Below are positions 3,241 to 43,950 of a DNA stretch of 64,000 nt, piece by piece; within the stretch, counting starts at the first letter, position 1, and each line of letters opens with the position of its first letter. The notes beneath the pieces are model-generated. The model ran no database searches. It worked only from the letters and a program-made list of their open reading frames with translations, and had not been told where the DNA came from. The position numbers were made by a program, and so were the translations under genes. The DNA comes from a virus (Duplodnaviria; Caudoviricetes), in IMG/VR virus record IMGVR_UViG_3300032225_000840, positions 434-64,433 of that record; one strand, written 5' to 3'.

Positions 3241-4355
3241 TGCCTTACGGAACAGTATCGGCTGATGTAATCGGTACAAGCGTAACTGGCTCTAATCTAG
3301 GGGCAGGAAATGCGTCAATTTGTAAAAATCGCCTGATAAATGGCGATATGCGTGTGGACCAAAGAAATGCTGGTGCTAGTGTTACCCTTGCTTCAGGAGG
3401 TGCTTACACCTTAGATAGATATAACTGTCAGAGCAATCAAGCAAGTAAATATTCAGTTCAACAAAACGCTGGTTCTGTAACTCCACCAGTAGGTTTTACT
3501 AATTATCTAGGAGCTACTTCTTTATCTGCTTATTCTGTGTTATCAACAGATTATTTTAGAATACAGCAAATTATTGAAGGGTATAACATAGCTGACTTAG
3601 GCTGGGGGACAGCTAACGCTAAAACTGTAACATTGTCTTTTCAAGCATATTCATCTTTAACTGGTACTTTTGGCGGTGTCCTTGCTAATGGGGGACAAAG
3701 CCGTAGTTACCCTTTTACTTACACTATTTCTTCTGCAAATACTTGGGAACAGAAATCTTTAACTATAGCTGGTGATACAAGCGGAACTTGGACAACAACT
3801 AATACTGCTGGCTTACAGGTAAATTTCCAATTAGGTGTTGGTTCAGATTATGTGGGTGCCGCTGGTGCTTGGGCTAGTGCCAATTACGTTGGCGCAAGTG
3901 GTTGTGTGTCCGTAGTAGGAACAAACGGAGCAACCTTCTACATTACTGGTGTGCAACTAGAAGTAGGAAGTAGTGCTACTGGATTTGAGTATCGTCAGTA
4001 TGGACAAGAGTTAGCTTTGTGTCAGCGGTATTATTATAAGTATGGTAATTTAAGTGGAACAAGCACTTATCCTATTATGCTTCAATGTTATTCATCAACA
4101 TCAGCATTTGGGAAAATATGTGATTTACAAGTACAAATGCGAGCTACACCAACAGTAAGTACATCTGGAACATTTACTGCTGGTACTGCTGCTGGAGGAG
4201 CTGCTGGAGCTTTCACTTCAACAACAATTGACAGACCGTCAATTAATTCTTTAACAACAAGCGGCTGGACAGGGTCTAGTGGTTTAGCAGCAGGAAACGC
4301 AACTGTTGTAACTGTGCCTGATAGTGCATTTGTTCAAGCCTCAGCGGAGTTATAA
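3240..4355 (+). CDS. Tail fibre / putative carbohydrate-binding adhesin
   Basis: KNRLINGDMRVDQRN...ITGVQLEVGSSATGFEYRQYGQELALCQRYY is a pattern common in phage receptor-binding proteins. Confidence 0.7.
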   Translation: MPYGTVSADVIGTSVTGSNLGAGNASICKNRLINGDMRVDQRNAGASVTLASGGAYTLDRYNCQSNQASKYSVQQNAGSVTPPVGFTNYLGATSLSAYSVLSTDYFRIQQIIEGYNIADLGWGTANAKTVTLSFQAYSSLTGTFGGVLANGGQSRSYPFTYTISSANTWEQKSLTIAGDTSGTWTTTNTAGLQVNFQLGVGSDYVGAAGAWASANYVGASGCVSVVGTNGATFYITGVQLEVGSSATGFEYRQYGQELALCQRYYYKYGNLSGTSTYPIMLQCYSSTSAFGKICDLQVQMRATPTVSTSGTFTAGTAAGGAAGAFTSTTIDRPSINSLTTSGWTGSSGLAAGNATVVTVPDSAFVQASAEL

Positions 4356-4356
4356 A

Positions 4357-4569
4357 ATGTATAAATTATATAAATCACCAAGAACAGGCGAAACTGTTAA
4401 TGTAGTTATTCGCTTATTCGATAATGCTTGCATCCCATTCGACCCTGACAACACAGATTACCAAGCCTTTAAGTCTGCTATTAACGCACAGACAGCACAA
4501 CTTGAAGACGCTGACGGCAACTTAATGACACCTGAACAAGCAATCACTTATGTAGAAACATTACCATGA
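4357..4569 (+). CDS. Small fibre-associated chaperone-like protein
   Basis: Start moved to ATG 4357, just after the upstream stop. IPFDPDNTDYQAFK motif. Confidence 0.6.
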   Translation: MYKLYKSPRTGETVNVVIRLFDNACIPFDPDNTDYQAFKSAINAQTAQLEDADGNLMTPEQAITYVETLP

Positions 4570-5210
4570 CAACAATAATTAACGGTTCAAGCCCGTCAAT
4601 CACATTTAGTGATTCGACAACGCAGAGCACGGGAGTGCCAGCGCCTAGTACTTCAGGCAATGTATTAACTTCTAACGGAAGCGCATGGACAAGCGTAGCA
4701 AATCCCTATGTTGGTGGCCCAAGAGCGCAAGTTTTTGTTGCTAACGGAACATTTACTATTCCATCAGGTGTAACTGCGGTTAAAGTTACTGTTATTGGTG
4801 GTGGCGGTGGCGGTGCTGGAGATACTACTGACGGAACTTCAGGTGGAACTTCATCTGTAGCATCAGGAACTCAATCTATTACAACAATTAGCGGAACTGG
4901 CGGTGGCACAAGATATGGCGGTGGCGGAAGTGGAACAAATGGTGATTTAAATATGACTGGCGGTGCTGGAAGTGGCGCAGTAACACAAAACGCTGGTGGT
5001 GGCACTCTTTATGGTTTTGCTTATAATTCTAATTACGGACATGGTGGTAGCGGTGATTTTGGTGGTGGTGGTGGCGGTGGAACTGCTATTAAATGGTTAT
5101 CAGGTTTAACTGCTGGAAATACATTAACAGTAACTAGAGGTGGCGGTGGAACAGGCGGCACTACTGGTGGTAATAGTGGTGCTGGCGGTGTAATAGTTTT
5201 TGAATACTAA
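4566..5210 (+). CDS. Glycine-rich adhesin-like protein
   Basis: AQVFVANGTFTIPSGVTAVKVTVIGGGGGG...GAGGVIVFEY glycine-rich domain. Confidence 0.7.
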   Translation: MTTIINGSSPSITFSDSTTQSTGVPAPSTSGNVLTSNGSAWTSVANPYVGGPRAQVFVANGTFTIPSGVTAVKVTVIGGGGGGAGDTTDGTSGGTSSVASGTQSITTISGTGGGTRYGGGGSGTNGDLNMTGGAGSGAVTQNAGGGTLYGFAYNSNYGHGGSGDFGGGGGGGTAIKWLSGLTAGNTLTVTRGGGGTGGTTGGNSGAGGVIVFEY

Positions 5211-13870: not shown

Positions 13871-16800
13871 ATGGATTACGCGGTTAACCCCGATACAGGT
13901 GAAGTTGTATTTCTTGTTAACAACAAGTGGGTACCTCCATCTGATTACGCAGTAAATGACAAAGGGCAAAAAGCCTATTTAGTTGGTAATCGATGGGAAG
14001 TACCTGATATACCTACACCTCAAACAGGTATGGGCGCTACTGTAACCGATGTAGGTAAGTTAGTTGGTGCTGGTGCAATTAGTGCTACGACAGATGTCCC
14101 AAAAGGAGTTGAAACAGCCGCTGCTGGTATGGCGCGCCAAACAAGTTTTGCTCCACAAGACATACTTGAGTATTTAGCTGACCCCACCAAGATTACAAAT
14201 AAACTTGCTTCTTTAGTTGGATTAGATAAACAATTAGAAGAACAAAAAACACTAGTTCCTGAAAATACACGTAAAGCTCAAGAACTTGCTGTAGACCAAG
14301 CGCTAACCAAAGGCAAAATACAAGCGCTAGAAAAATTGTCCCAATACGGTAAGGGAGTTTCTAAAGATATTGAAGGTACAGTAAGCCCCGAAATGCGCCA
14401 AGCTATGCGCGGTGCTACTCCAGAAGGTAACATTATTAAACAACTAGATGAGGCTCTTGTTACTGGAGATTTTAGTGGGGTTAGTTTTGGTAAAGCACCG
14501 TCTGCGCAAGGCTACCTTGGATTAGGCGCCAAATTATTAGGCTCTTCTTTACCCGCATTAATTGGAGGTGTAGCTACTAAAAGCCCAACAACAGGGGGTG
14601 TATTAGGTGGTGGCGCTGCCGCTACTGAAGCTAAAGATACAGCCAAAGAATATATCAGCAAAATGTCTGATACAGAACTGGAAGAAAAAAGCCCATACTA
14701 TAAAAATTTAGTTGCCCAAGGCGTTAATCCAACAGAAGCACGGCAATTAACCATTGATAAATCTGGTGATGTTGCTGGTATGTACCAAGGTTTAACGGCT
14801 GCATTAGGTAGTGCTTTTACTACCAAACTATTAATGGGACAGTTTAATAAAAAAGTTATAGATAGCGCTAAAGATAGAATATATAACGCTATTAGCGGCG
14901 GTGTTAAAGGTGTAGCTGAAGAGTCCACCCAAGAACTTATGGAAGGTGTTGCCGCCGATCTAGGTATTAACAAAACAGTAGTTCGTGAAATTGGGGTTGA
15001 TTCATTTGCTAATTTAGTACTTGGCGCTCTTGGTGGTGGCGGTCCCGGCGTAGTGGGTGGGTTACGCGGTGAAAAAACTCCAACAGCCCCAACAACTCCA
15101 CAAGCACCAGCACAAAAGTTTACAACGGATGAACAAGGTAACCTAGTACCCGTACCCCCTGCCGCTCCCCCTGCTCCTATTGCGCCAATATCTACAACCG
15201 CTGCACAGCCCGAACTCTTTACAAAAGAAGAAGCTCCCTATGCAGTAACACAAGATGAGACAACTGCCGCACAACGTCAACAAGCAGAAATAGAACGCAA
15301 TATAGATGCACTACGTCAGCAAGAGTTAGCAGCAACTTCTACAGATGAAAAGATAGCGCTTACAGAACAGATTGCACAACTAGAATCACAACTACCCGAA
15401 GCACCAAAAGACAGAGCAGCGGCATTGGGTGAAGAAATGATGACGCTTGAGCGTAAGTATAAAGAGCTCGAAGCTACACGTAATGCTACAAAACCCCTAA
15501 AAGAAAAAGGGGCGTTAACCGAACAGATGAACACAATACGTGCTCGTCAAACAGAAATTATTGCCGAAGGAAAACAATTACAAAAACAAGGTGTTAGCTT
15601 TGCGCCACCTGAAGGACAGGCTGCTTTAGAATTAGAAGTGCCTCCTGTTATTAATGATACTGTTGCACAAAGATTTGGTTTTACACCAAAAGCGGTTAAA
15701 ATAAGAGAAGCAATTCGTGGTTTAGATATGACTAAACCGGAAGACCGCCAAAAATTTAGAGACCTTATAGAAAAACATGAACGCAAGGGTGCTAAGGTTG
15801 ACATGGCGGCAGCTGAGGACTATGTAAATTATTTTGAGGAGGCACCAAGTGGAGACATCCGAACTGAACCTATCAGCAGAACAGGTGAGCCAAGCATTCA
15901 AGTGCCTAGCGAAGCAGGCGCGCCCCCCACAGGAACTACTACACCTGTCGCTGGAGGACTGGGTAGCCCTGTCAAATCTACTGGACGAGTTGCTGGAGGA
16001 GAAGAAGTTCTTGGAGAAGATAGGACAGCTCCATTAAAAATTCCAGTACAAAAAGTAACCCCTGCACAGCTAAGTGCAAGAGCTACCCCTAAAGAGGATG
16101 TCGCATTAGGTTCTATTACCGGCACTAAACTACAGCAAAATAAAGAGTTTGCTAAACGTATGGGGTATGTTAGTACTGTTGGTGGGCATTTTGTAAAAGG
16201 CGCGGTTAATAAAAAAGCTTTAGCTGCAGCAGAAGCTGGCGATGCCAAAGGGGCACTAGATGCCTTATCTAAAAGCAAAAGCCCTGTATACCGCCATATC
16301 GCTCAAATTGCTAAAACCATTAAGGGTTTAAAAATAGTAGTAGACGATACTAAAATTGAAAAGACTTTTAGTAAGTTTAAAGAAGGTGTTGATTCCGCTA
16401 AGATTACTATTGCTAATATTGATGCGCTGCGAGAAGCCAAACGTAGAGTAGATGCTGGTGAAAAATTAAATGATGTTGCTAAAAGTATTATTCAGTTCCC
16501 TAAGGGTTTAACTCCTGACGTAAAGTTTGACCAAACCTTAGCAAGTACTTTATTTTCAAATAACGCTTTGTTTAATAAGGATGCGTTCTATAAATATGTT
16601 GCTGAACAAGAAGCAATGCTTGAGGGCTACGAAGAATCAAATAGATATGCAGCTGGTACTCCAGTAGAAGTAGAAGCTATTCCGGGTTTATATGATCCTG
16701 AAACAAACACAGTCTATTTAAACTCGTATTTTAGTAAATATGAAGATGTATTAGCACATGAATTAACCCACGCTATTTCCCACGATTTTGTATCTAACCC

Positions 16801-19800
16801 TAGAGCAAAAAATACCCCCACATATAAAGCGCTTGATAAACTATATCAGCATGTGCTTACCGAATTTAGCAATAAAGATGCCTATGGATTAACTAGTCTT
16901 GACGAGTTTGTTGCCGAAGGTTTGTCTAACCCATTGTTCCAAAAAGAACTTGCCCAAATTAAATACGAAAATACTACTGCATGGAATAAGTTTGTTGAAA
17001 GCATTGCAAAAATTCTTGGTCTTAAACCTGATAATGCTTTTACTGAACTATTAAACTTAACTACTACCGCCGCTGAAAAAGGACAGTTTACAAAACGTGG
17101 TGGCAACGAAAAATTGTCTGTTGCTTTGGGTAATGATTTAAATTTAGTAGATAAAGATACCGCTGGGTATACACCAAAAAGGATTAAAAACGTATTAAAT
17201 AAATACGCTTATGGTACTAGAAACGAAGATATAAATACAACTAAAGCGTATGTTGGATATGTGTCACCCGAAGACTTCTTAAAAGCTACAACAAGGTCAG
17301 CCGAAGATTTAAAAGCTCTTGAAACAGATAGTCGTTCTAAACCTTTAAATGTAGAAGAACTTGCTGGAGAGATACAAGATATATTTTTAACATTAGATGA
17401 AGATTTTAATTTAACGGGGCATGAAGGGCGTCATCGTATGATTGCCTTAAGAGATGCTGGTATTAAACAAGTACCTGTTGTATTTATGTTTTATAGTGGT
17501 AAAAATCGTTTTGAACGGAAAGACCAATATATACCCCCTCAAAAATACTTAATGTTTGGCGGAGGAGGTCGTGGACAAAAAGGTTTTACTGTAAAAGAAC
17601 TAATACCTATTACTTACGACAACAAACAAAAAATAATAAATAAATTTAGTGCTAAAGAAAGCCAAGTTGCTTTTAATATAATCCGTACTCCCGAAGGGCA
17701 AAAGGCAGAAGAACAATTCCAACAAGCGGGCGGTGTTAAAAAACCACCAAAGCCACCAGCATTTATTAGAAAAATGCAAGAATGGAAAAGTGCTTACGAT
17801 AACAACATGTTAGTTGGTTCTATGTTTGGTAAGCTACAAAATGCGTTTTCGTTTGACCGTGCTTTTAGTAATCGCATGCGCAATACTTTGCTTGATATAG
17901 CTAAAAAAGGCGATGCCACTATGGAGCAAGCTAAAACAGCATTGCTACGTATAAGCATTTCCCAAGCACTATATAGAAGTGATTTTGCACGTAAGTTTTT
18001 AGCCACAGGCAACTATAAGTATGATGCAACAACTAATCGCTGGGAGGCAGTACAAGACGACGTCAACATGGACAAGTTTGAAGGCTTAGCTAAAGACCTT
18101 GCTAAACGTTTAGGGGTTGATAACGAAACCGCCCTTGGGTATATGAGTAAAGGCTATGAGGCTAAACGGGTAATAGGTTTCTATGATGACCTTGCTGATA
18201 CGCGGGCTGAAATAACTCGTACACAAAAGAAGATAGATGTATTAAAAAATAAAAAGCGGGACAAGGCAGAGCAAAAAGACTTTGATAAAAAGAAAGAATT
18301 GCTAAAGGCGTTAGAAGACAAAGCTAATGAGCTAGAAAGTAAAGCCCAGCACATGACCCGTGCGCAAGCTATGAAAGGCATGGAGTTATACAATGACCAC
18401 CCTGAAATAAAAGAAGGGGCTGAAATTTGGAACACCATTCGTAAACGGGTAATTAAAATGCTTGTTGAAACAGGCGTTAAAAGCGAAGAACAAGCTGAAA
18501 AATGGTTAGACGAAGCCGCATATGTACCGTTTTTCCGTGATATTGGCGAAGAAAAAGCATCAGGTCCTCAAGTTATGACCCGTGGTATTCGTGAAACTAT
18601 GGCGGATAAACGCATGAAAGGCTCGATGCTTGAAGTTGAAAACACCGTTGGAAATATGTATCAATGGGTTCAGTGGTCTGTGGCTCGTGCTATTAGTAAT
18701 AAACAACTTACAACAATGCTCGCCCAGTATAAGGCTGTGTTGCCGGACGAAGTAAGAGCCGGAAAAGGTCCACCTGATAGCACGTTCTCAGTATACGAAG
18801 ATGGCGTACAAAAGTTTTATCATGTTGCTGACCCCGCAATAGCTCAAGCGTTTACAGGTATGGAGTCGGTTATATTTCCCGGTATTGGTGCGGCAATGCG
18901 TTTTAAAAATGCGTTTAGTCATGTTATTACCCGCGTACCAATTTTCCCAGTTGCTCAGTTAGTTTTGATGGATACATGGTCGGCTATGTCTACATCAGGG
19001 TTAAAACACCCATTTGGAATAGTAAAAGAAATAGCCAAAGAAGTAGCAAAAACTGCTATGGGCACAAGCGAAGCAAGGCAAAAATTAACAGCTGCTTCTG
19101 TATTATCTACGCACGAGTATAGTTCATTAACTGATGCAGATGACGTTGCAAAACGTTTAGACCTATCTAAACCAAACGCATTTCGTAGAACTATGAACAT
19201 GCTAGATAAATGGGCAGCGCTAAACGATAATATGTTACGCCAAGCGGTGTTTGCACAAGCTAAGAACGAAGGATTAAGTGATACCGAAGCAATGGAAAAA
19301 GCGGTTGAAATTGTTAACTTCCGCCGTATGAGTGGTAATGCTGTGCTTGTATTTGCTAGTAAAACAGTTCCATTTTTTAATGCATACTCACAAGTATTAG
19401 ATGCTACGGGTCGCACATTAAGCGGCAAGGGTATTACTCCACAAGAGCGCAAAACAGGGTTGGCAATACTTGCGGCTACTTCAGCTAAGTTAGGTATATT
19501 ATCTTTCTTATACGCCGCCGCAGTAAGCGACGATGAAGACTACCAAAAGAAAAACCGTTTAGTACGTGATCGTGTGTTTGTCATACCGGGTACTGGTGGA
19601 TTAAGTGTACCGTTACGTTATGACTTATTCTTATTACCTAAGATTATCGGGGAATATAGCTATAACCTGATGGCAGATAAAGGGTTTGTAGACTCTAAGA
19701 TGTTTAAAGACGCAATGGCTAGAGCCACTAAAAAACAATTTGAGCACCCAATGGGTGGCGTATTTGCACCCGCAATTGGCTTGGCTACTAACCATGACTT

Positions 19801-20410
19801 TTTCTTTGACCGTGAAATTGTTAACGCAAGTTTACGTAAACTAGACCCCGAATTGCAATACACTAAGTCTACTTCTGAGCTATCTAAAGTTATAGGTAAC
19901 TATGCAAAAATATCCCCAGCTAAATTAGATTATTTCTTTAATGGCTATTTTGGCTCATTTGCCACACTAACTGCATTAGCCACAAATGATTTGGTTGCAC
20001 AGGCAAGAGGAGTTCCACGCCCCGCTAGATCAGTTAAAGAAATAGCGGCTAGTTTGCCTAGTATGGGTGGGTTTATGGACAAGCAAGAATCAGTCAATGC
20101 GGTTGCTGATTTTTATGAAGCGGCTCGTGAGGTAAATACAACAGTTGATTCGTATCGTGTTAAAGCTAAAGCAGACCGTGAAGCAGCTAAAAAATACATA
20201 AAAGAACCTGAGCACTATAAACAAGCTAAAGTATACGAAGCGGTAACTGGTATCGGTAATGCCTTGGAAGGATTAAAGCGTCAAGAAAACGCTATTTTAG
20301 AGTCTAAGATGAGTTCAGAAGAAAAACGCATTGAACTAGACAAGATTAACAAGAAGAAAGAGAAACTTACTGAGCCTGTTAGACGGGTGCGTAAAGAACT
20401 AGGGTATTAA
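13871..20410 (+). CDS. Giant polyvalent ejection protein (zincin metallopeptidase + ParB-like + LPD38-like domains)
   Basis: 2179 aa; LAHELTH...DEFVAE metallopeptidase, GHEGRHRMIALRDAGIKQVPV ParB-like motif, and C-terminal HDFFFDREIV...ISPAKLDYFFNGYFG. Confidence 0.75.
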   Translation: MDYAVNPDTGEVVFLVNNKWVPPSDYAVNDKGQKAYLVGNRWEVPDIPTPQTGMGATVTDVGKLVGAGAISATTDVPKGVETAAAGMARQTSFAPQDILEYLADPTKITNKLASLVGLDKQLEEQKTLVPENTRKAQELAVDQALTKGKIQALEKLSQYGKGVSKDIEGTVSPEMRQAMRGATPEGNIIKQLDEALVTGDFSGVSFGKAPSAQGYLGLGAKLLGSSLPALIGGVATKSPTTGGVLGGGAAATEAKDTAKEYISKMSDTELEEKSPYYKNLVAQGVNPTEARQLTIDKSGDVAGMYQGLTAALGSAFTTKLLMGQFNKKVIDSAKDRIYNAISGGVKGVAEESTQELMEGVAADLGINKTVVREIGVDSFANLVLGALGGGGPGVVGGLRGEKTPTAPTTPQAPAQKFTTDEQGNLVPVPPAAPPAPIAPISTTAAQPELFTKEEAPYAVTQDETTAAQRQQAEIERNIDALRQQELAATSTDEKIALTEQIAQLESQLPEAPKDRAAALGEEMMTLERKYKELEATRNATKPLKEKGALTEQMNTIRARQTEIIAEGKQLQKQGVSFAPPEGQAALELEVPPVINDTVAQRFGFTPKAVKIREAIRGLDMTKPEDRQKFRDLIEKHERKGAKVDMAAAEDYVNYFEEAPSGDIRTEPISRTGEPSIQVPSEAGAPPTGTTTPVAGGLGSPVKSTGRVAGGEEVLGEDRTAPLKIPVQKVTPAQLSARATPKEDVALGSITGTKLQQNKEFAKRMGYVSTVGGHFVKGAVNKKALAAAEAGDAKGALDALSKSKSPVYRHIAQIAKTIKGLKIVVDDTKIEKTFSKFKEGVDSAKITIANIDALREAKRRVDAGEKLNDVAKSIIQFPKGLTPDVKFDQTLASTLFSNNALFNKDAFYKYVAEQEAMLEGYEESNRYAAGTPVEVEAIPGLYDPETNTVYLNSYFSKYEDVLAHELTHAISHDFVSNPRAKNTPTYKALDKLYQHVLTEFSNKDAYGLTSLDEFVAEGLSNPLFQKELAQIKYENTTAWNKFVESIAKILGLKPDNAFTELLNLTTTAAEKGQFTKRGGNEKLSVALGNDLNLVDKDTAGYTPKRIKNVLNKYAYGTRNEDINTTKAYVGYVSPEDFLKATTRSAEDLKALETDSRSKPLNVEELAGEIQDIFLTLDEDFNLTGHEGRHRMIALRDAGIKQVPVVFMFYSGKNRFERKDQYIPPQKYLMFGGGGRGQKGFTVKELIPITYDNKQKIINKFSAKESQVAFNIIRTPEGQKAEEQFQQAGGVKKPPKPPAFIRKMQEWKSAYDNNMLVGSMFGKLQNAFSFDRAFSNRMRNTLLDIAKKGDATMEQAKTALLRISISQALYRSDFARKFLATGNYKYDATTNRWEAVQDDVNMDKFEGLAKDLAKRLGVDNETALGYMSKGYEAKRVIGFYDDLADTRAEITRTQKKIDVLKNKKRDKAEQKDFDKKKELLKALEDKANELESKAQHMTRAQAMKGMELYNDHPEIKEGAEIWNTIRKRVIKMLVETGVKSEEQAEKWLDEAAYVPFFRDIGEEKASGPQVMTRGIRETMADKRMKGSMLEVENTVGNMYQWVQWSVARAISNKQLTTMLAQYKAVLPDEVRAGKGPPDSTFSVYEDGVQKFYHVADPAIAQAFTGMESVIFPGIGAAMRFKNAFSHVITRVPIFPVAQLVLMDTWSAMSTSGLKHPFGIVKEIAKEVAKTAMGTSEARQKLTAASVLSTHEYSSLTDADDVAKRLDLSKPNAFRRTMNMLDKWAALNDNMLRQAVFAQAKNEGLSDTEAMEKAVEIVNFRRMSGNAVLVFASKTVPFFNAYSQVLDATGRTLSGKGITPQERKTGLAILAATSAKLGILSFLYAAAVSDDEDYQKKNRLVRDRVFVIPGTGGLSVPLRYDLFLLPKIIGEYSYNLMADKGFVDSKMFKDAMARATKKQFEHPMGGVFAPAIGLATNHDFFFDREIVNASLRKLDPELQYTKSTSELSKVIGNYAKISPAKLDYFFNGYFGSFATLTALATNDLVAQARGVPRPARSVKEIAASLPSMGGFMDKQESVNAVADFYEAAREVNTTVDSYRVKAKADREAAKKYIKEPEHYKQAKVYEAVTGIGNALEGLKRQENAILESKMSSEEKRIELDKINKKKEKLTEPVRRVRKELGY

Positions 20411-37982: not shown

Positions 37983-39083
37983 TTAACTCATGTTAGTAAA
38001 TAGGTAGTTGTTCTTAGTAGCCCAATCAATAAAGCCACGACTTGTGCCTACTGTTGATGCCTTACTTGATACACGCATGACGCTTGTAGCAAACAACGCT
38101 TGTGCTTCCTTGCCTAAGCGATTCATATACTTAATCCACGCATTGACTGATTCTTTATCAACACGTTGAACCGCCGAGTAAACCAACATACATACTGCAC
38201 TTGGACTTTCGGGAACACGAGCCTTCTCAGGGTTTTTAATAATTGTTTCCCAATCCTCTAAGTCATTGGCTAAACGCACCATAGCCATCATGTCATACGT
38301 AGCCCGTCTACCGATTGTGCCGATCAAGGCATGGCTAAGCACATCATCACCTAACGCCTTACATTGGTTAATCAGATCACTTGCCTTCTCCATAGTGCGA
38401 GGTGTTACGACTGCGGGGCGTGGACTACGGGGGTCATTGATATACTCGTTGTCCTTCGGGTCTTTCAAATCCTCGAACGACTGGAACATCTGAGGAAATT
38501 GTTTTGCCGTTAAGATAACTTCGGGTGCTATGTTATAGGGTAAAGCAAACTCCTCAATCCAAGTGTCTGCATTGGGCTTACCTACCTTAACTGTCGTTAT
38601 ACGATTACGTGCATGGGGTGGAACAGAATCCCCGATACCTTCTACTGACAAGTTTGTAGTAGCAAACACAATACTCTTTCTACCATCATTCCCTACGGGT
38701 AGGGAATAGACACCTAACTGCCGTTCAAGCATTAAACGTAAACAGGCGTTCATAACTGCCTTGGGTGCTTTGCCTATCTCGTCTAGCATGATGACAACGG
38801 GCTTGTCCAAATGAAACCCAAACTCCTCATTAGGAATGAAAGAGCAAACTTCTACCCCGTCAATCGTGCGGATTTTAGGAATCATGAAGTCGCCTACATC
38901 TTTTGTGGTCATGTCCACGTAGCAGAAATGATAGTTTTCTTTCCCCAATTTTTCTTGCATGAATTTGAGCATGGATGACTTGCCAATACCCATCTCGCCT
39001 TGTGCTAAGACTGTTACCTTATCACCTACTGCCATGATCAGGTCAGCCGTTTGCCGTAATGTTAATGATTTATATAATTCCAT
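37983..39083 (-). CDS. MoxR-like AAA+ ATPase
   Basis: GEMGIGKS, IMLDEIGK, FATTN (sensor 1), RNR (Arg finger), TPRT. Confidence 0.88.
   Translation of the reverse strand: MELYKSLTLRQTADLIMAVGDKVTVLAQGEMGIGKSSMLKFMQEKLGKENYHFCYVDMTTKDVGDFMIPKIRTIDGVEVCSFIPNEEFGFHLDKPVVIMLDEIGKAPKAVMNACLRLMLERQLGVYSLPVGNDGRKSIVFATTNLSVEGIGDSVPPHARNRITTVKVGKPNADTWIEEFALPYNIAPEVILTAKQFPQMFQSFEDLKDPKDNEYINDPRSPRPAVVTPRTMEKASDLINQCKALGDDVLSHALIGTIGRRATYDMMAMVRLANDLEDWETIIKNPEKARVPESPSAVCMLVYSAVQRVDKESVNAWIKYMNRLGKEAQALFATSVMRVSSKASTVGTSRGFIDWATKNNYLFTNMS
38688..38707. repeat. Palindromic element copy 1 (inside the AAA gene)
   Basis: ATTCCCTAC-GG-GTAGGGAAT. Confidence 0.9.
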
Positions 39084-39108
39084 AATGATTCTCCTTAGTA
39101 GTGGTTAA

Positions 39109-39996
39109 TTAAAATGCAAACTTCGCTAACATCTTATCTACTGCTTCTTTTGTTTCGAGGCGTAAGCCTTCATCTTCACGCAAGTCATCAGTAGTAATAC
39201 CCTTGAGTTGACTCTCCATCTCCTTTCGTAATGCCTCAAGTTTTAGATCACCCGTAATGTTTAAGTGTCTGAGTAAATCGGTTAGTTCATGGGCGTTGTC
39301 CACCATGCTATCGAACAGGCGTTGCTTACCCTTGGTTTCATCTAACTTCTCTGATATATGTTTGAGAGTGGTATAGGTCTTGTCCCAAACATCTTTCATA
39401 GAAGTTTCAATACGATCTTTGAACGCGTTGTTATACCGATCTTTTAACTCAGCCATACCCGCCTCACCAATGTCCACACGAAAATCACCCGACTCAGGCA
39501 CAGGGCTAAAGTAATAGTTAAACGCAAACTTCTCGGCTACCTTTTCTTTAAGTGGGTAGTCATCACGATTAAATAAGCCACCCAAACTGAAAGCGGATTT
39601 AGACACAAGGGTATCGTAGTCCAATAAGAACCCATCAACCGCATCACTAAACATCTTTTCATATTGGGTTAGCCGTGCCTTGTAATCCACGAACAACGTA
39701 GCGGGTAGTAGGCGTGTTCCCGCATCACTCCAAGGGGTAGATTGGGTGTAGTGCCAATTACGAATAGCACCTGCAATCTTGCCGATCTCGGCTAACTTCT
39801 CCGAACCTGCAAGTAGATTCTTGTGGTAATTACCCGCCTTGGTTGTGGTTGACTTGGCTTGGTCTATCTCAGCAGACACCGCCTTATCTAGTTTACGCCC
39901 TGTCCATACTGAGATTGATAAGTCCACCAACATAGCAGATGAACTAATCTTGGAATAGGCATAGTCTTGATCATTCAATAAATTCAGTTGATTCAT
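39109..39996 (-). CDS. DUF3150-like helical protein
   Basis: MLVDLSISVWTGRKLDK, PWSDAGTRLLP, FSPVPESGDFR. Start placed at ATG 39996 behind AAGGAG. Confidence 0.65.
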   Translation of the reverse strand: MNQLNLLNDQDYAYSKISSSAMLVDLSISVWTGRKLDKAVSAEIDQAKSTTTKAGNYHKNLLAGSEKLAEIGKIAGAIRNWHYTQSTPWSDAGTRLLPATLFVDYKARLTQYEKMFSDAVDGFLLDYDTLVSKSAFSLGGLFNRDDYPLKEKVAEKFAFNYYFSPVPESGDFRVDIGEAGMAELKDRYNNAFKDRIETSMKDVWDKTYTTLKHISEKLDETKGKQRLFDSMVDNAHELTDLLRHLNITGDLKLEALRKEMESQLKGITTDDLREDEGLRLETKEAVDKMLAKFAF

Positions 39997-40024
39997 AATG
40001 CTCTCCTTAAAAATAAAAATAGCC

Positions 40025-40047
40025 AATCCCTACGGGTAGGGAATAGC
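40025..40047. repeat. Palindromic element copy 2
   Basis: AATCCCTACGGGTAGGGAATAGC. Confidence 0.9.
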
Positions 40048-40071
40048 ATGGGGTTTAACTACTTATAAATA

Positions 40072-40101
40072 ATTATAACAAACTACGACTACTTGGTCAA
40101 C
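40072..40101 (-). promoter_or_regulatory. sigma70 promoter
   Basis: TTGACC-18 bp-TATAAT with an extended -10 TG. Confidence 0.65.
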
Positions 40102-40298
40102 CATACATACATAACGATAGGCACTACTAAGCCTAACCCTCCATAAAACAAAAACTGTGCTAACTCTGCAAACCACTCGATACCATGACGCCACTCAGGG
40201 GTGTGTCTTTGAATAGCCGTGGCATACTCCGCATCACGATTTGCTTCGCTAAGTGTGCGTGGTAGTGGTCGCAAGTTTTTCTCTAATGATGTTGTCAT
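40089..40298 (-). CDS. Small protein with C-terminal transmembrane segment
   Basis: PRTLSEA motif, hydrophobic C-terminus. Confidence 0.65.
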   Translation of the reverse strand: MTTSLEKNLRPLPRTLSEANRDAEYATAIQRHTPEWRHGIEWFAELAQFLFYGGLGLVVPIVMYVWLTK

Positions 40299-40456
40299 GC
40301 TACTCCCTCCTCGTTTGCTAATACACCTTCGATAAACCCTGTGACAAAAGGCTCAAGTCCATCATCACATGGGTCGTTGTCCATCTCGTTGATATAAAAA
40401 TTCCTAGCGTAAGCATCTAATCGGTTGATGCGTTCTACATTTTCTTTGGTTCTCAT
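40295..40456 (-). CDS. Small acidic protein (53 aa)
   Basis: Not in the ORF track. MRTKENVERINRLDAYARNF...; ATGA-type overlaps at both ends. Confidence 0.55.
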   Translation of the reverse strand: MRTKENVERINRLDAYARNFYINEMDNDPCDDGLEPFVTGFIEGVLANEEGVA

Positions 40457-40659
40457 TTTACTAACCCTCCTTTGTTATTTACTCCAATTAAATCGGCTTG
40501 ATTGGTAACCAGCATATAGTTCGACTTGTGCATAGGCACTACACAGAATAACTTAGCCCTAGCCATAGCCACTTCATCGCCACAATCTAAGCAGACACGA
40601 TAACCAATATCCCACCTTGCTTTAGGGACATTCTCGTTACACTTTTTACACTTCATCAT
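40453..40659 (-). CDS. C4 zinc-finger protein, TraR/DksA-like spacing
   Basis: CKKCNENVPKARWDIGYRVCLDCG. Confidence 0.6.
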   Translation of the reverse strand: MMKCKKCNENVPKARWDIGYRVCLDCGDEVAMARAKLFCVVPMHKSNYMLVTNQADLIGVNNKGGLVK

Positions 40660-40822
40660 ATGACTCCTCTATATCAATAGCCCTATCTTGGTATTGGACT
40701 GATCGCAAAAATAAGTCAGCATCTTCCCTTGTATAAAAGATGCCAAGCACATCTTCAACACCATACAAGTCAACGCTAATCACTTTATACTTCTTCTCCA
40801 CTACAATTTGCAAGTTACTCAT
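40646..40822 (-). CDS. Small hypothetical protein (58 aa)
   Basis: AAGGAG RBS; MSNLQIVVEKKYKVISVDLYGVEDVLGIFYTREDAD. Confidence 0.55.
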   Translation of the reverse strand: MSNLQIVVEKKYKVISVDLYGVEDVLGIFYTREDADLFLRSVQYQDRAIDIEESYDEV

Positions 40823-40919
40823 ACTGATCTCCTTCTTTTGGTTTTGTCTCTAAATCGTGGCAAGTTTCTCGCCTTCCAATTACTTTTTAAGATACTCATA
40901 CTGATCTCCTTTATATTCG

Positions 40920-41072
40920 TTAGTCCCACTCAACATCATCAATAAAACAAGCACCCGCATCCACTTCATTACACATGGATTTACAAGCCTTCCCGATAAC
41001 TTCAACAATTTGGTCTGCCTGTTCACCATCGGCAGGGACACCTTTATATTCAAACACAACGATTACACGCAT
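40920..41072 (-). CDS. Small acidic protein (50 aa)
   Basis: AAGGAG RBS; MRVIVVFEYKGVPADGEQADQIVE. Confidence 0.55.
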   Translation of the reverse strand: MRVIVVFEYKGVPADGEQADQIVEVIGKACKSMCNEVDAGACFIDDVEWD

Positions 41073-41085
41073 TTTCTTCTCCTTG

Positions 41086-41214
41086 TTAGTTAAAAAAACT
41101 AGATACTGCTTTACTTACTGCATAGACTAAAAGCATAGCAACAGCACAAGCCATGCCACCTTCTACTACCCACAACAAATCACTCGTAATTAAATCAATA
41201 GAAAAATTAAACAT
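41086..41214 (-). CDS. Small membrane peptide (42 aa)
   Basis: AAGGAGG RBS; MFNFSIDLITSDLLWVVEGGMACAVAMLLVYAVSK. Confidence 0.55.
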   Translation of the reverse strand: MFNFSIDLITSDLLWVVEGGMACAVAMLLVYAVSKAVSSFFN

Positions 41215-41229
41215 ATCTACCTCCTTTTT

Positions 41230-41682
41230 AAATAAAAGACTTAGGCGGATAGACTCACCTCATAAATGAATCTACCCTGTAAATCTTCTCTCGGCTTTGT
41301 TTTGAAATTATTTGACCTCTGCTAATTTATTGCAGTCCTGTATGGGGTTATGGTCGGGTTGTGCTATATGTAAGTGGCATACAGATCAGGGGTTATTTGG
41401 TAGCATGGCTACACGTTCACGCCTAAGCGATCTCAATACATATGCAACAACGTAGGGATACTGCTCGGATTCGATTGGCTTTATCAGCATTTCGCTGTTA
41501 TCGGGGTTTGTGTGAGTCTTGTTCCTCACGCCTACTAAGCCTTCAGGGTTTCCACCCATCTGCACCTAACGCCTACCCTACACCTAGAGCCTTGTGTCTA
41601 GGCATTTAATCAGATTGTATAAAGAGCATCGGCTATTCCCTACGGGTAGGGATTACAGGTTAAAAACCCATTTACCAGCCAT
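41230..41682 (-). ncRNA. Candidate large structured non-coding RNA or leader (~440 nt)
   Basis: Gene-free on the transcribed strand, starts at a perfect promoter, many nested helices found by hand (see findings). Confidence 0.6.
41631..41656. repeat. Palindromic element copy 3
   Basis: GGCTATTCCCTACGGGTAGGGATTAC. Confidence 0.9.
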
Positions 41683-41688
41683 AACTAC

Positions 41689-41717
41689 ATTATACTCTCT
41701 TATACTACCTGTGTCAA
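41689..41717 (-). promoter_or_regulatory. Consensus sigma70 promoter
   Basis: TTGACA-17 bp-TATAAT, exact match. Confidence 0.9.
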
Positions 41718-41726
41718 GTTGCCTTT

Positions 41727-42041
41727 TTACCCATTACGTAGTTTATGTAACGCCTTGTTATACTGGGAATAGGCTTTGCCCTTCTGCGTATCCTCGTCTA
41801 TGGGGCGTATCAAGTCGTATCCCGTCTTGCCTAACTGCCGACGTTTATAGATTAAGTTGGTATCAATGCCACGATTGCCATACTTTAGTTTTGATAACTC
41901 TGCCCATTCTTTAGCCGTGCGATACTCACCCTCTACCTCGATTAACTCCGATTCTTTTTCGGTGCGTCTATCGATTTTTGTGCGTAGGTATTTTAGAACC
42001 GCCCTTGTCTGTTCGTATGATAGTTTTATGGTCATCTCCAA
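41727..42041 (-). CDS. Putative DNA-binding protein
   Basis: IEVEGEYRTAKEWAE...LIYKRRQLG resembles the DNA-binding tails of phage homing endonucleases. Confidence 0.5.
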   Translation of the reverse strand: MEMTIKLSYEQTRAVLKYLRTKIDRRTEKESELIEVEGEYRTAKEWAELSKLKYGNRGIDTNLIYKRRQLGKTGYDLIRPIDEDTQKGKAYSQYNKALHKLRNG

Positions 42042-42304
42042 GCCTCGTCAAATTCGTCTTCCGATATTTCATTGGGGTTACTCGGTTTGTATTGGCTAGG
42101 CGATATTGTCATGCCACTAGGTGCAATGAGTATCGCTTGGTTGTTTTTTATGTATTCGATTATGAGATCACGCACCACCTGAGATGGGGGTTTAAATTGC
42201 TTTTTTGAGATGGATACTAATTGGTCTGAAATCACTTGTGGAAGGCGGATTGTGAGTGAAGTATCGTTCAGTTTTGTTTTGCTACCTAGTCGTTTTATGC
42301 TCAT
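42032..42304 (-). CDS. Ribbon-helix-helix DNA-binding protein
   Basis: SLTIRLPQVISDQLVSISKKQFKPPSQVVRDLIIEYI (CopG/Arc-like). Start at ATG 42304 or GTG 42316. Confidence 0.75.
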   Translation of the reverse strand: MSIKRLGSKTKLNDTSLTIRLPQVISDQLVSISKKQFKPPSQVVRDLIIEYIKNNQAILIAPSGMTISPSQYKPSNPNEISEDEFDEAWR

Positions 42305-42465
42305 TGTGTAAGACACCTGTATGTTATATGTAAGTCATAGGGTTGCCACTAGCATGACAAGTGTCTGCCTAGTGTATGCTATAAGTATAACGTATGTCTT
42401 ACAAGATTTGTGAAAAACTTTGAATTTTCTTAATTTTTTTGGCTTGGAATGATAGTTTTACTGTT

Positions 42466-42728
42466 AATCACCAAATTCTGTCAATTTCGTTAACTTAGCC
42501 TAAAACCCGCAGAGCCTTATAAACAAAGTAATGCCCACAAATCGGGCTTCTAAGTTAAGTGAAAGGTCTGGCAAAGAAAATCCTGTGTATTACATTTGTC
42601 TTACCTCTCAATATCTCTCTCTACCCCTTTCATTTATATTATAAAAAAAGATATTCGGGCATTGCTTATTCTATAAGGCTCTGCGGGTTTTACCCCCTAG
42701 TTAACGAAGTGTATAAGTTTTGGTGATT
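42466..42728. repeat. Long imperfect inverted repeat with a perfect 21-bp core
   Basis: TAAAACCCGCAGAGCCTTATA (42501-42521) is the exact reverse complement of 42672-42692; the flanks also match. Confidence 0.85.
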
Positions 42729-42847
42729 CGGTCTGCTTATAGAGAGTTTTGGTGATTCGATTATGTTTACAAAATTAACTCGGCATCTGCTTAAACCGAC
42801 TCGGCTACTCGGCATCTGCTTGATGATAGTTATGATAGTTTTTGGAC

Positions 42848-42899
42848 AAAAAAAATACCCGCTAAAAAGCGGGTAATAAAAAACCCCGCCGAAGCGGGG
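42848..42899 (-). terminator. Two tandem intrinsic terminators
   Basis: CCCCGC-TTCG-GCGGGG-T6 followed by TACCCGC-loop-GCGGGTA-T8 on the - strand. Confidence 0.9.
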
Positions 42900-42923
42900 C
42901 TATTCCCTACGGGTAGGGATTAC
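42898..42923. repeat. Palindromic element copy 4
   Basis: Identical 26-mer; overlaps the stop codon of 42920-43498. Confidence 0.9.
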
Positions 42924-43498
42924 TTAATTTTCTTAGCCTTGGTCAATACGTTGCGAATATCGATAACAGTATCGGCGGTAAGGGTTTTCTTAAAACTAGG
43001 ATGGTTGTAGGCTTTCAAGAGTAGATCAAGGATGCCTACCTCTTTACGTTGGTTTCCTTTGGCGGTCTTAGCCTTACCCGTTGTAGGCTTGGTTGACCCT
43101 TCAGGGCGGAACTTACTAATAGCCTTCCCGCCGTTGACTACCTTCACGAATAACTCATAGTAGTTTTGCTTGGTCTTGGGTGCAAGACTACCAAGGCTAT
43201 CAATAAAGGCGGATTTTACAAGGGCGGTAGTCTTACACTTGGTGCGACCATCTGCCAATTTTACCCCGCCTTTATTTAGGGCTAAGGCGTTATGATTAAA
43301 TACCTCTAATGCTTTCCCTGCTGACTCAGTAAACCCTAGGCATTCAACGTAGGCTTTACCCGCCCCGCTTACTAACCCCAATATCTCAGGCTGAGTAAGG
43401 CTAGGCTTAGCGGATACTACTTTGACCTTCCCGCCCTGTGAACCTGTAAGGGTCTTAGCAACTTGGGCTATTGCATTGGTTTTGTTTGCTGTTTTCAT
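42920..43498 (-). CDS. Lys-rich first early protein, unknown function
   Basis: Has its own consensus promoter, AAAGGA RBS and double terminator. Confidence 0.8.
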   Translation of the reverse strand: MKTANKTNAIAQVAKTLTGSQGGKVKVVSAKPSLTQPEILGLVSGAGKAYVECLGFTESAGKALEVFNHNALALNKGGVKLADGRTKCKTTALVKSAFIDSLGSLAPKTKQNYYELFVKVVNGGKAISKFRPEGSTKPTTGKAKTAKGNQRKEVGILDLLLKAYNHPSFKKTLTADTVIDIRNVLTKAKKIK

Positions 43499-43559
43499 AA
43501 TCGTAATTCCTTTATAAGTTAATTAAAAAATAGTAAGTAAACATTACCTACTAATAACC

Positions 43560-43588
43560 ATTATACGCCCATATAACCCTACTGTCAA
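43560..43588 (-). promoter_or_regulatory. Consensus sigma70 promoter
   Basis: TTGACA-17 bp-TATAAT, exact match. Confidence 0.9.
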
Positions 43589-43624
43589 ATGGGGTTTTAT
43601 ACCCTTTATATACAAGGCTTTTAA

Positions 43625-43650
43625 GGCTATTCCCTACGGGTAGGGATTAC
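43625..43650. repeat. Palindromic element copy 5
   Basis: Identical 26-mer, upstream of the 43560-43588 promoter. Confidence 0.9.
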
Positions 43651-43950
43651 CTAGCATTAGTTAAGCGGAGAGCACGGCGGGGGCTAAAAATCCCATAGCG
43701 TTACGAAGAACGACCCCACACACCCAAATTCTATTTAGGAGTCCCGTCTTGTATATATTCACTGAGTTTTGCACAGTCGATACCATATTTTGTAGACCCC
43801 CCCCTATAAAAAGTTAGGGGACCCTAACATACCCCCCATATATATTTTTGCCACCCCCTTGCATTTTCAGGGACTCCTAGGCCCACCCCCATATATAAAA
43901 TTTTTATGCTATTATTGCTGCAGCGCAACATTTTATGAAAGGACGCTACT

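Follow-up and report, generated by a model that had tools for sequence, protein, structure and literature searches.

The window analysed here is a 64,000-nt stretch of a 64,433-bp phage record (Caudoviricetes). It contains a leftward early arm in which the genes around five copies of a short palindrome all lie on the minus strand, and which is driven by three near-consensus sigma-70 promoters, P1 to P3. The features of this region are as follows.

37983..39083, minus strand: gene for a MoxR-like AAA+ ATPase, host of palindrome copy 1
38690..38705: palindrome copy 1, inside the AAA+ ATPase gene
39109..39996, minus strand: DUF3150-like gene, downstream of P3 and copy 2
40027..40042: palindrome copy 2, in the P3 leader at about +24 to +39, the DUF3150 start codon 30 nt further on
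40072..40100, minus strand: promoter P3, TTGACC-17-TATAAT with TG, 11 of 12 matches
41615..41627, minus strand: rrn-type boxA-like element GCTCTTTAtACAA, its core TGCTCTTTA intact
41637..41652: palindrome copy 3 (26-mer 41631-41656), in the P2 leader at about +31 to +46
41689..41717, minus strand: promoter P2, TTGACA-17-TATAAT, 12 of 12 matches
41727..42035, minus strand: gene for a 104-aa HTH-like protein (about 102 aa from the ATG at 42035)
42032..42304, minus strand: gene for a ribbon-helix-helix (RHH) protein
42856..42901, minus strand: two tandem intrinsic terminators, after copy 4
42904..42919: palindrome copy 4 (26-mer 42898-42923), adjoining the TAA stop (42920-42922) of the first early gene
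42920..43498, minus strand: first early gene, encoding a Lys-rich protein of 192 aa, bracketed by copies 5 and 4
43560..43588, minus strand: promoter P1, TTGACA-17-TATAAT, 12 of 12 matches
43631..43646: palindrome copy 5 (26-mer 43625-43650), ending 42 bp upstream of the P1 -35 box

An exact scan of the window found five plus-strand copies of the 16-base palindrome TCCCTACGGGTAGGGA, against 0.01 expected by chance, an excess that speaks for operator sites; 10 matches were reached in 0 of 100 shuffles. These are the copies that an earlier note on this DNA had placed at 38688, 40025, 41631, 42898, and 43625, coordinates that mark longer units of 20 to 26 nt. At copy 1, the extended unit (38688-38707) is a 20-bp perfect palindrome except at its centre, and copies 3 to 5 do share the identical 26-mer described in that note. 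The motif had been said to be absent from the rest of the 64 kb, and scans with mismatches bore this out: no further TCCCTACGGGTAGGGA site was found in the window at up to 2 mismatches, and no other copy in the whole record at up to 1 mismatch. The opening 5 kb of the early arm contain all five copies, and transcription of four of them is certain. Two copies lie some 20 to 50 nt past a promoter start (copies 2 and 3), one is intragenic (copy 1), one is at a stop codon, the 16-mer of copy 4 adjoining the TAA, and the 16-mer of copy 5 stands 42 bp ahead of a -35 box. The centre of copy 5 lies at about -85 relative to P1, and copy 4 stands directly before the two tandem terminators. No palindrome site overlaps a core promoter, which argues against operators.

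The GG centre was reported to be always on the plus strand, and this is true of all five copies, but orientation did not survive as a trait of the family. The outer flanks of copy 2 are inverted with respect to those of copies 3 to 5, and the centres vary in sequence and orientation among relatives, so that being oriented is not a property of the palindrome family. The asymmetric flank AA-palindrome-AT is found in both orientations relative to transcription, an arrangement that favours operators.

Copy 1 is built from the codons TCC CTA CCC GTA GGG, which encode S-L-P-V-G. The V residue (GTA) is present in this phage and in the related loci L007 and L011, and other relatives have E, K, or Q in its place. 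Copy 1 is perfect because of the amino-acid change to V together with the choice of codons, and nucleotide-level selection created this in-gene copy, a point in favour of operators.

Palindromes in related phages

Relatives were collected using the DUF3150-like gene as a marker. At least three copies of a same-arm palindrome of their own were present in 22 of the 39 related loci, compared with 0 of 200 shuffles, and about 16 palindrome types occur among these loci. The palindromes are confined to the corresponding early region, often at homologous positions; in genomes that are complete, the stretch holding all copies measures 8.1 kb of 62 kb, 7.1 kb of 65 kb, and 7.9 kb of 66 kb. The phage-specific network of sites proposed in the earlier note is therefore strongly supported by the relatives, each with its own palindrome at equivalent places. 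A palindrome is present at the position of copy 2 in nearly every relative, its sequence differing each time. The arrangement around copy 4 recurs in L012, L126, and L107, and with degenerate copies in L013, L015, and L016; the tandem terminators of L126 are nearly identical to those of the window and adjoin a different palindrome. In a near-isogenic set of relatives, most proteins are 90 to 100% identical and the palindromes at homologous positions differ (TCCGTAC-N4 in L017, L020, and L021; GGATATAC-N1 in L022; CCGTAAC-N1 in L040). Copies in the family lie at +30 to +60 from near-consensus promoters, 11 to 38 nt before start codons, or directly after stops, the TAA forming part of the flank in stop-adjacent copies. 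The sites are genuine and under nucleotide-level selection; they keep to the early arm and hold their positions, and from one relative to the next they change together.

Within one genome the arms are constant and the centres vary, as in L012, where eight copies have seven different centres. Constant arms around variable centres are what is usually seen where a dimer reads two half-sites. Spacer length also varies by 1 to 2 bp inside single genomes (N2 and N3 in L031 and L033; N1 to N3 in L034 to L036), which a rigid dimer would accommodate poorly and a hairpin easily. In the window and in L013, L015, L017, L020 to L022, and L040, the first copy precedes the first early promoter and is outside its transcript, which counts for DNA operators and against RNA hairpins. 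L016 and L126 have their first palindrome between P1 and the first gene, which favours an RNA signal.

Operators, RNA hairpins, and other readings of the sites

We tentatively favour, at a little under an even chance, the reading that the palindromes are operator-like DNA sites for a putative phage-encoded specificity factor controlling the early units. We infer that the sites bind a protein, that they act as DNA rather than as RNA, and in which direction they act. The five palindromes would be the cis recognition sites of a lineage-specific system acting on early transcription units driven by host RNA polymerase, and a dimeric factor, encoded by the phage and made early, would bind the two 7- to 9-bp arms and ignore the centre. 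Two sites closely follow promoters, one follows the first gene, one is internal to the ATPase gene, and one precedes the first promoter. With four sites thus within units or at their ends and the fifth ahead of the first promoter, a bound factor would block the early units or loop them, leading to feedback shut-off or to an early-to-middle switch. Operators are also favoured by the occurrence of palindromes across the family, by their confinement to the early arm, by the differing palindromes of the near-isogenic set, and by the proteins that track palindrome type in that set and in the clade of the window. It counts against operators that most sites are in transcribed leaders or right after stops, and that a boxA follows copy 3, as in nut and rrn leaders; a roadblock at copy 4, just before the terminators, seems pointless.

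Among known systems, the sites recall the L5 gp71 stoperators of cluster A mycobacteriophages, reportedly described by Brown and colleagues in 1997. A stoperator is an asymmetric site of 13 bp with a strict orientation relative to transcription. Such sites are spread genome-wide, a monomeric HTH repressor encoded by the temperate phage binds them, and in each phage the site sequence co-evolves with this protein. Like them, the palindromes are many short, phage-specific sites dispersed within transcription units, in intergenic gaps, at stop and start codons, and downstream of promoters. Unlike them, the palindromes are symmetric, without fixed orientation in the family, and limited to 5 to 8 kb of the early arm, and neither an integrase nor a recognisable repressor was found in the phage. 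KorB with its operator OB, from the IncP-1 plasmid RK2, and the parS/sopC sites also offer a parallel, being short, perfect, replicon-specific palindromes (sopC 7-2-7; OB 13 bp). Here too there are several perfect palindromes at varied distances upstream and downstream of promoters, in and between genes, but spacer length varies within some relatives, and ParB_N (PF02195) had no match in the whole genome at E <= 0.01, controls being positive. A further likeness is to the start-associated sequences (SAS) and extended SAS of cluster K mycobacteriophages, reportedly described by Pope and colleagues in 2011. SAS are asymmetric 13-mers at the ribosome-binding region whose role is unproven. Like the palindromes, they are conserved repeats, with imperfect inverted repeats among them, that immediately precede many gene starts, but the palindromes are symmetric, vary in their distance from the start codon, and also occupy positions away from starts.

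The serious rival to the operator reading, somewhat unlikely in our judgement, is that the palindromes are hairpins in early transcripts, read by a phage factor, possibly the first early protein, and that they serve either to load an antitermination complex, in the manner of boxB in nut sites, or to set off one cistron from the next for processing, stability, or translation. The coding-strand hairpin has a 6- to 9-bp stem and a CCCG loop, and predicted energies are -7 to -13 kcal/mol, but fold z-scores are modest (-1.4 to -3.6). Transcription of all copies but one, the placing of family copies near promoters, start codons, and stop codons, and the variation of spacer length within genomes fit an RNA signal, whereas in-gene copy 1 would be translated through. 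Translation through nut sites inactivates them. The succession of first gene, palindrome, and strong tandem terminators resembles pL-nutL-N-tL1, and the P2 leader has a palindrome, an rrn-type boxA 8 to 50 nt downstream, and then about 440 nt of untranslated RNA. In the window, the boxA core occupies 41627-41619, 9 nt downstream of copy 3; the P2 spacer and initial transcribed sequence are kept in relatives, which have GCTCTTTAACAA at the boxA place, exactly (L009, L016, and L038) or with 1 mismatch. A match to the boxA consensus (U/C)GCUCUU(U)A beside a promoter-proximal hairpin was found at copy 3 only, and each genome has one boxA only, which counts against the RNA reading (rrn boxA sequence from PMC2724277, Table 1). 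As in lambdoid nut and rrn leaders (PMC2724277), a phage-specific hairpin lies tens of nucleotides past early promoters and before terminators, one copy adjoining a boxA with an rrn-matching core and a terminator following the first early gene; unlike nut sites, there are 5 to 8 copies, mostly without boxA, one of them inside a gene and one upstream of a promoter. The loops, moreover, vary and the stems are fixed, the opposite of known hairpin-protein recognition such as that of boxB by the arginine-rich N protein. Pairing gives a mixed picture: hybrid arms of the TCCGTRC group are mostly G-U on the coding strand, but flank pairs show no G-U excess (G-U 45 versus A-C 128, both at shuffle level), and in single-mismatch copies transversions are as frequent as G-U. 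The family profile of the first gene has a weak match to the RNA-binding ribosomal protein S7 (E 0.03-0.04), but this is borderline and has no supporting fold match.

It is quite improbable that the repeats are homologous or site-specific recombination joints that shuffle early cassettes, or sites like loxP and dif. The identical 26-mer of copies 3 to 5, flanks included, suggests gene conversion between copies, the hypervariable early block of the near-isogenic relatives is bounded by palindrome-bearing positions, and the first-gene cassette is bracketed by two copies in direct orientation. L012, however, keeps the arms and not the centres, so its copies are held by selection and not homogenised, 16 to 26 bp is short for homologous exchange, and relatives with differing palindromes could not recombine through them. 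The loxP/dif idea of the earlier note finds no support, as the centres are not constant among relatives and the complete genome yielded no tyrosine or serine recombinase. In T4-type phages, PeSL stem-loops are effective terminators before a promoter and flank nearly every small gene (PMC2839356). The early arm resembles such cassettes in its strong sigma-70-like promoters, repeated stem-loop, plasticity, and many small open reading frames, but the palindrome follows the promoter, lacks a U tract, and is not called as a terminator, the terminators at 42856-42901 being hairpins distinct from it. There are only five copies and none among the seven small variable genes (40089-41214; 40043-41636 is copy-free), and the suggested PeSL-like joint finds no support either.

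That the palindromes are hairpins extruded in single-stranded DNA, serving, as in N4, as promoters for an injected RNA polymerase, or else as signals for priming close to the origin-like region, we consider highly improbable. Residues 220-571 of a 2179-aa virion protein match the N-terminal part of the N4-type virion RNA polymerase (phrog_2206, E 1.4e-13), the closest cultured relatives of the ATPase are N4-like phages (about 25% identity), and the sites lie shortly upstream of genes with flexible spacer length. The part of phrog_2206 matched is not the polymerase, no polymerase core was detected, and Pfam gives LPD38 only. The early units are already equipped with near-consensus host promoters, and copy 4 as a promoter would fire straight into two terminators. 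N4 promoter hairpins are constrained in loop length and sequence; the loops here are not.

Candidate readers and a proposed exchange of specificity

A broader proposal, unlikely as it stands, is that virulent phages of this uncultured family carry exchangeable early-region specificity types, each consisting of 5 to 8 palindromic tags and a putative reader, with readers possibly drawn from unrelated families and tags that are possibly hairpins coupled to host Nus/boxA antitermination; a switch of type among near-isogenic phages would insulate the early programme from co-infecting relatives. The reader may be the first early protein, a small HTH protein, or a degenerate homing-endonuclease-like protein. 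If this is correct, specificity types would correspond, in lytic phages, to immunity or N-nut specificity classes. Operator networks of the dispersed kind have been well studied in temperate phages and plasmids; how virulent phages dependent on host RNA polymerase time their early genes and insulate them is little known. With about 16 types at homologous positions, near-identical genomes set apart mainly by palindrome type, and one site that an amino-acid change built into coding sequence, the family is an unusually clean natural experiment, in which the reader could be sought directly and recognition at the DNA level clearly tested against recognition at the RNA level. Orthogonal pairs of regulator and site, usable with sigma-70 promoters, could also come out of it.

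The product of the first early gene is the one candidate reader that every lineage has; its AF2 model has a pLDDT of 64, with no recognisable DNA-binding fold and no convincing PDB match. Among the early proteins, no arginine-rich N-like protein was seen and none matched a repressor family. The RHH protein, put forward as a binder in the earlier note, is an unlikely reader: its DNA-facing beta-strand residues are identical in phages with three different palindromes, and its identity falls to 41 to 48% within one palindrome type. It probably autoregulates its own conserved promoter region. The other binder put forward there, the 104-aa protein, fared better, as a candidate reader in the sub-lineage of the window. 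It has an HTH-like segment (I.IEG...[ST]LKE[IW]AE...TV..RY..G) whose putative recognition helix is the same throughout a palindrome type and changes from type to type (nine sequences, six types), but the protein is absent from the TCTAGAC lineage (L107, L110, and L111). In the block of the near-isogenic relatives, a 415-aa protein that is absent from the clade of the window also tracks palindrome type (95 to 97% identity within types, 76% and 59% between), such tracking being confounded by linkage and phylogeny. For the 415-aa protein, an N-terminal coiled coil is predicted and weak homing-endonuclease-like motifs were seen; its gene is syntenic with the slot of the 104-aa protein gene.

Palindrome copies in the early arm

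Between ~43.6 and 20.7 kb every gene is encoded on the minus strand; the structural genes are read rightward, starting at 43.95 kb. The region's three best sigma-70-type promoters (P1, P2 and P3) all point leftward. The earlier note had described a palindrome with five copies here and none noticed elsewhere, and this description holds: the 16-mer TCCCTACGGGTAGGGA has exactly five copies in the window, numbered by rising coordinate and listed below by their starts, with no further site in the window at up to two mismatches and no extra copy at up to one mismatch in the full 64,433-bp source record, an IMG/VR virus with terminal repeats that is rated 100% complete and nearly all covered by the window. 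On average, 0.01 matches would be expected by chance (dinucleotide-preserving shuffles). Isolated half-sites are not enriched, and the half-site at 41452 is therefore at chance level. Copies 3, 4 and 5 share an identical 26-mer, the palindrome of copy 1 extends to 20 bp, and copy 2 has an unchanged centre but carries the outer flanks of copies 3 to 5 in inverted order.

Promoters and palindrome copies in the early arm
43588..43560, minus strand: P1, sigma-70-type promoter
41717..41689, minus strand: P2, sigma-70-type promoter
40100..40072, minus strand: P3, sigma-70-type promoter
43631: copy 5, its end 42 bp upstream of the P1 -35 box
42904: copy 4, adjoining the TAA stop of the first early gene, with two strong terminators directly after
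41637: copy 3, at about +31 to +46 of P2
40027: copy 2, at about +24 to +39 of P3 and 30 nt ahead of the DUF3150 gene
38690: copy 1, within the MoxR-like AAA+ gene

Where copy 1 lies, the relatives' ATPases have the residues Y/H-x-L-P-(E/K/Q)-G-S. A V at the E/K/Q position occurs only in this phage and its closest relatives, L007 and L011 (L-numbers denote retrieved loci), which have the same palindrome. The codons over copy 1 in these phages are exactly TCC CTA CCC GTA GGG, and the neighbouring synonymous sites differ among them. From this combination it follows that selection acted on the nucleotides: copy 1 was created and maintained at the level of DNA or RNA, and one amino-acid change was the price. 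Directly after this in-gene palindrome lies a five-residue ATPase insertion, NDGRK (38675-38689), that is absent from all relatives, including L007.

Two other features of this arm were recorded. Among the early genes, 40453-40659 encodes a 68-aa DksA/TraR-like zinc-finger protein that is conserved in both clades (15 loci) and may bind the secondary channel of RNA polymerase. The divergent junction of the early and late arms (43660-43950) has three C5-7/G5-7 runs, each beside a TATA-like stretch (for example CCCCCATATATA, + strand); they may represent late promoters, an origin, or a packaging element. G-rich runs also lie ahead of the first palindrome in L013, L015 and L030.

Palindromes in related phages

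Searches of GenBank phages with the nucleotide sequence and with the first-gene protein gave no match, the best cultured identity of the ATPase is only ~25%, to N4-like phages, and this phage has no cultured relative. Relatives were collected from IMG/VR with the DUF3150 protein, giving 40 loci. Within IMG/VR the exact 16-mer was found only in the relatives L006/L011 and L007 and in one unrelated contig, L008. A de novo scan found at least two perfect palindromes with the same 7-bp arm in 27 of 39 loci and at least three in 22 of 39, as against at least three in none of 200 shuffles. The palindrome sequence differs by lineage, with ~16 types in all. Written as arm and spacer length, examples from the scan are TCCCTAT-N1, TCGTTAC-N2, TCGGGAC-N1, TCCGTAA-N2, TCCGTRC-N4, GGATATAC-N1, GTAGGAC-N3 and GGGTAC-N2, and further searches added GTAACAC-N2 and TCTAGAC-N2. 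Positions recur across lineages: directly ahead of the DUF3150 gene, in the P2 leader, at the first-gene stop ahead of terminators, near P1, and directly after other stop codons, with the TAA as flank. In three complete relatives, every copy lies inside 7-8 kb of the early arm.

Within one genome the arms are constant and the centres variable (the eight copies of L012 show seven different centres). The GG centre had been proposed to be oriented, and in the window it does lie on the + strand in all five copies; among relatives, centre orientation is mixed. Since orientation is mixed and centres vary, the oriented GG is a local feature of this phage and not a property of the element, and it probably arose by recent copying among copies 3-5.

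The 16-mer was also sought in 185,579 prokaryote genomes. The 56 hits are clustered in two MAGs, MFD01721.bin.2.215 and a Lac Pavin Bacteroidetes MAG (L050-L103), and in both it forms the core of longer, dispersed, REP/MITE-like repeats with different, GC-rich flanks. We treated these matches as coincidence and not as a host link or CRISPR-repeat mimicry.

DNA operator or RNA hairpin

The closest analogues are L5 stoperators, the KorB/OB and parS/sopC palindromes, lambdoid nut and rrn leaders, T4-type PeSLs (PMC2839356) and cluster K SAS elements. Because each of these systems has at least one tested defining feature that the window palindromes lack, we do not class the palindromes as members of any family. 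Rfam gave no match anywhere in the window, and the genome yielded no ParB_N domain.

The palindromes may act as DNA operators, a reading that we place a little short of an even chance. It is favored by conserved arms with free centres, by flanks that occur in both orientations, by the fact that in several lineages copies precede the first promoter, and by putative DNA-binding proteins that covary with the palindromes. It is less probable, though still a serious prospect, that they work as an RNA signal in the form of a hairpin, as suggested by copies in leaders, after stop codons and ahead of terminators, and by spacer length that varies within genomes. Folding predictions for the coding strand give every copy a stem of 6-9 bp capped by a CCCG loop (-7 to -13 kcal/mol; modest z-scores, -1.4 to -3.6), and wobble-pair tests (G-U versus A-C; imperfect copies and flanks) were neutral between DNA and RNA.

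The P2 leader also speaks for an RNA signal, in that an rrn-type boxA lies 8-50 nt downstream of its palindrome. In the window (41230-41690, minus strand) the order is a conserved initial transcribed sequence GTAGTTATAG, the palindrome, boxA, and a conserved block AAATGCC...GGTGTAGGGTAGGCGTAGG, compared at the homologous place in L009, L012, L013, L015, L016 and L038. The boxA is exact (GCTCTTTAACAA; reference sequence from PMC2724277) in L009, L016 and L038; that of the window, GCTCTTTAtACAA at 41627-41615 (minus strand), precedes ~440 nt of untranslated sequence without an ORF. In layout this region matches an rrn or nut antitermination leader, and it may be a long leader or a non-coding RNA protected by boxA.

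Recombination joints seem improbable; no integrase, resolvase or other recombinase was found in the genome. We give marginally less weight again to single-strand hairpin promoters or primers. The 2179-aa virion protein (13871-20410) resembles the PHROG family of the N4-type virion RNA polymerase (E 1.4e-13, residues 220-571) only over that polymerase's non-polymerase N-terminus, and it also matches LPD38.

Candidate readers of the palindromes

As DNA operators, the palindromes would have a phage-encoded reader, and three proteins of the window were considered. The earlier note had named the ribbon-helix-helix (RHH) protein (42032-42304) as a candidate binder. Phages with three different palindromes have identical residues on its DNA-facing beta-strand, its sequence identity drops to 41-48% within the TCTAGAC type, and we rejected it. 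A conserved motif upstream of the RHH gene, CTTGTAnnACATnCGTnTATACT (42320-42420, minus strand), is near-identical in L012 and L016. Distinct from the palindrome, it probably serves as operator or promoter of the RHH gene itself and would be the better RHH target.

The adjacent 104-aa protein (41727-42035) was also proposed as a binder. The putative recognition helix of its HTH-like segment is identical within palindrome types and different between them; in L016 and L113 the proteins are 60% identical overall and both have PHTVYARYRVG. The gene is absent from the TCTAGAC lineage, where the RHH stop adjoins P2. The sole candidate in every lineage, sister clade included, is the first early gene (42920-43498, 192 aa). 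Its product has motifs common to the lineages (DGRxK and NYYxL..NGK) and is 60-91% identical among phages of one palindrome type and no more than 44% identical across types; phylogeny confounds this tracking, as does linkage in the sister clade. No family was common to 53 first-gene homologues scanned against Pfam, and a 53-member profile weakly matches ribosomal protein S7 (E 0.03-0.04).

In the sister clade, L017/L020/L021 (TCCGTRC-N4), L022/L045 (GGATATAC-N1) and L040 (CCGTAAC-N1) have most proteins 90-100% identical and yet have different palindromes at homologous positions, for example directly ahead of the DUF3150 gene. They constitute a natural experiment on palindrome type. Within the variable early block, only a 415-aa protein follows palindrome type (95-97% identity inside the TCCGTRC-N4 group, 76% and 59% to the other types), and its neighbours vary regardless. 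The protein, with a predicted N-terminal coiled coil, is present in all sister-clade loci and absent from the window's clade, where the 104-aa gene occupies its slot; hhalign of the two families gave a probability of 11%. The 415-aa protein weakly resembles an HNH PHROG family (E 0.006) and, with the acidic residues lost, the second LAGLIDADG motif of I-SceI (E 0.012-0.03); these similarities are leads only. Fold searches with this protein and the first-gene product found nothing convincing (best Z 7.0, a TetR-family helical bundle; otherwise coiled-coil hits).

The type-switched phages keep one TCCGTAC-GCAA-GTACGGA ~4.5 kb downstream of the DUF3150 gene (L022 14219; the homologous site in L040, G007:7989), either a relic of the ancestral type or an edge marker of the exchanged block. 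Directly upstream of the first palindrome, the sister clade also has ~6 tandem 11-bp iterons (CATATAGCATA or TTAGGTATATG; L017 ~4320-4395, L021 ~4975-5045, L040 ~4505-4575), which look like an origin or packaging site.
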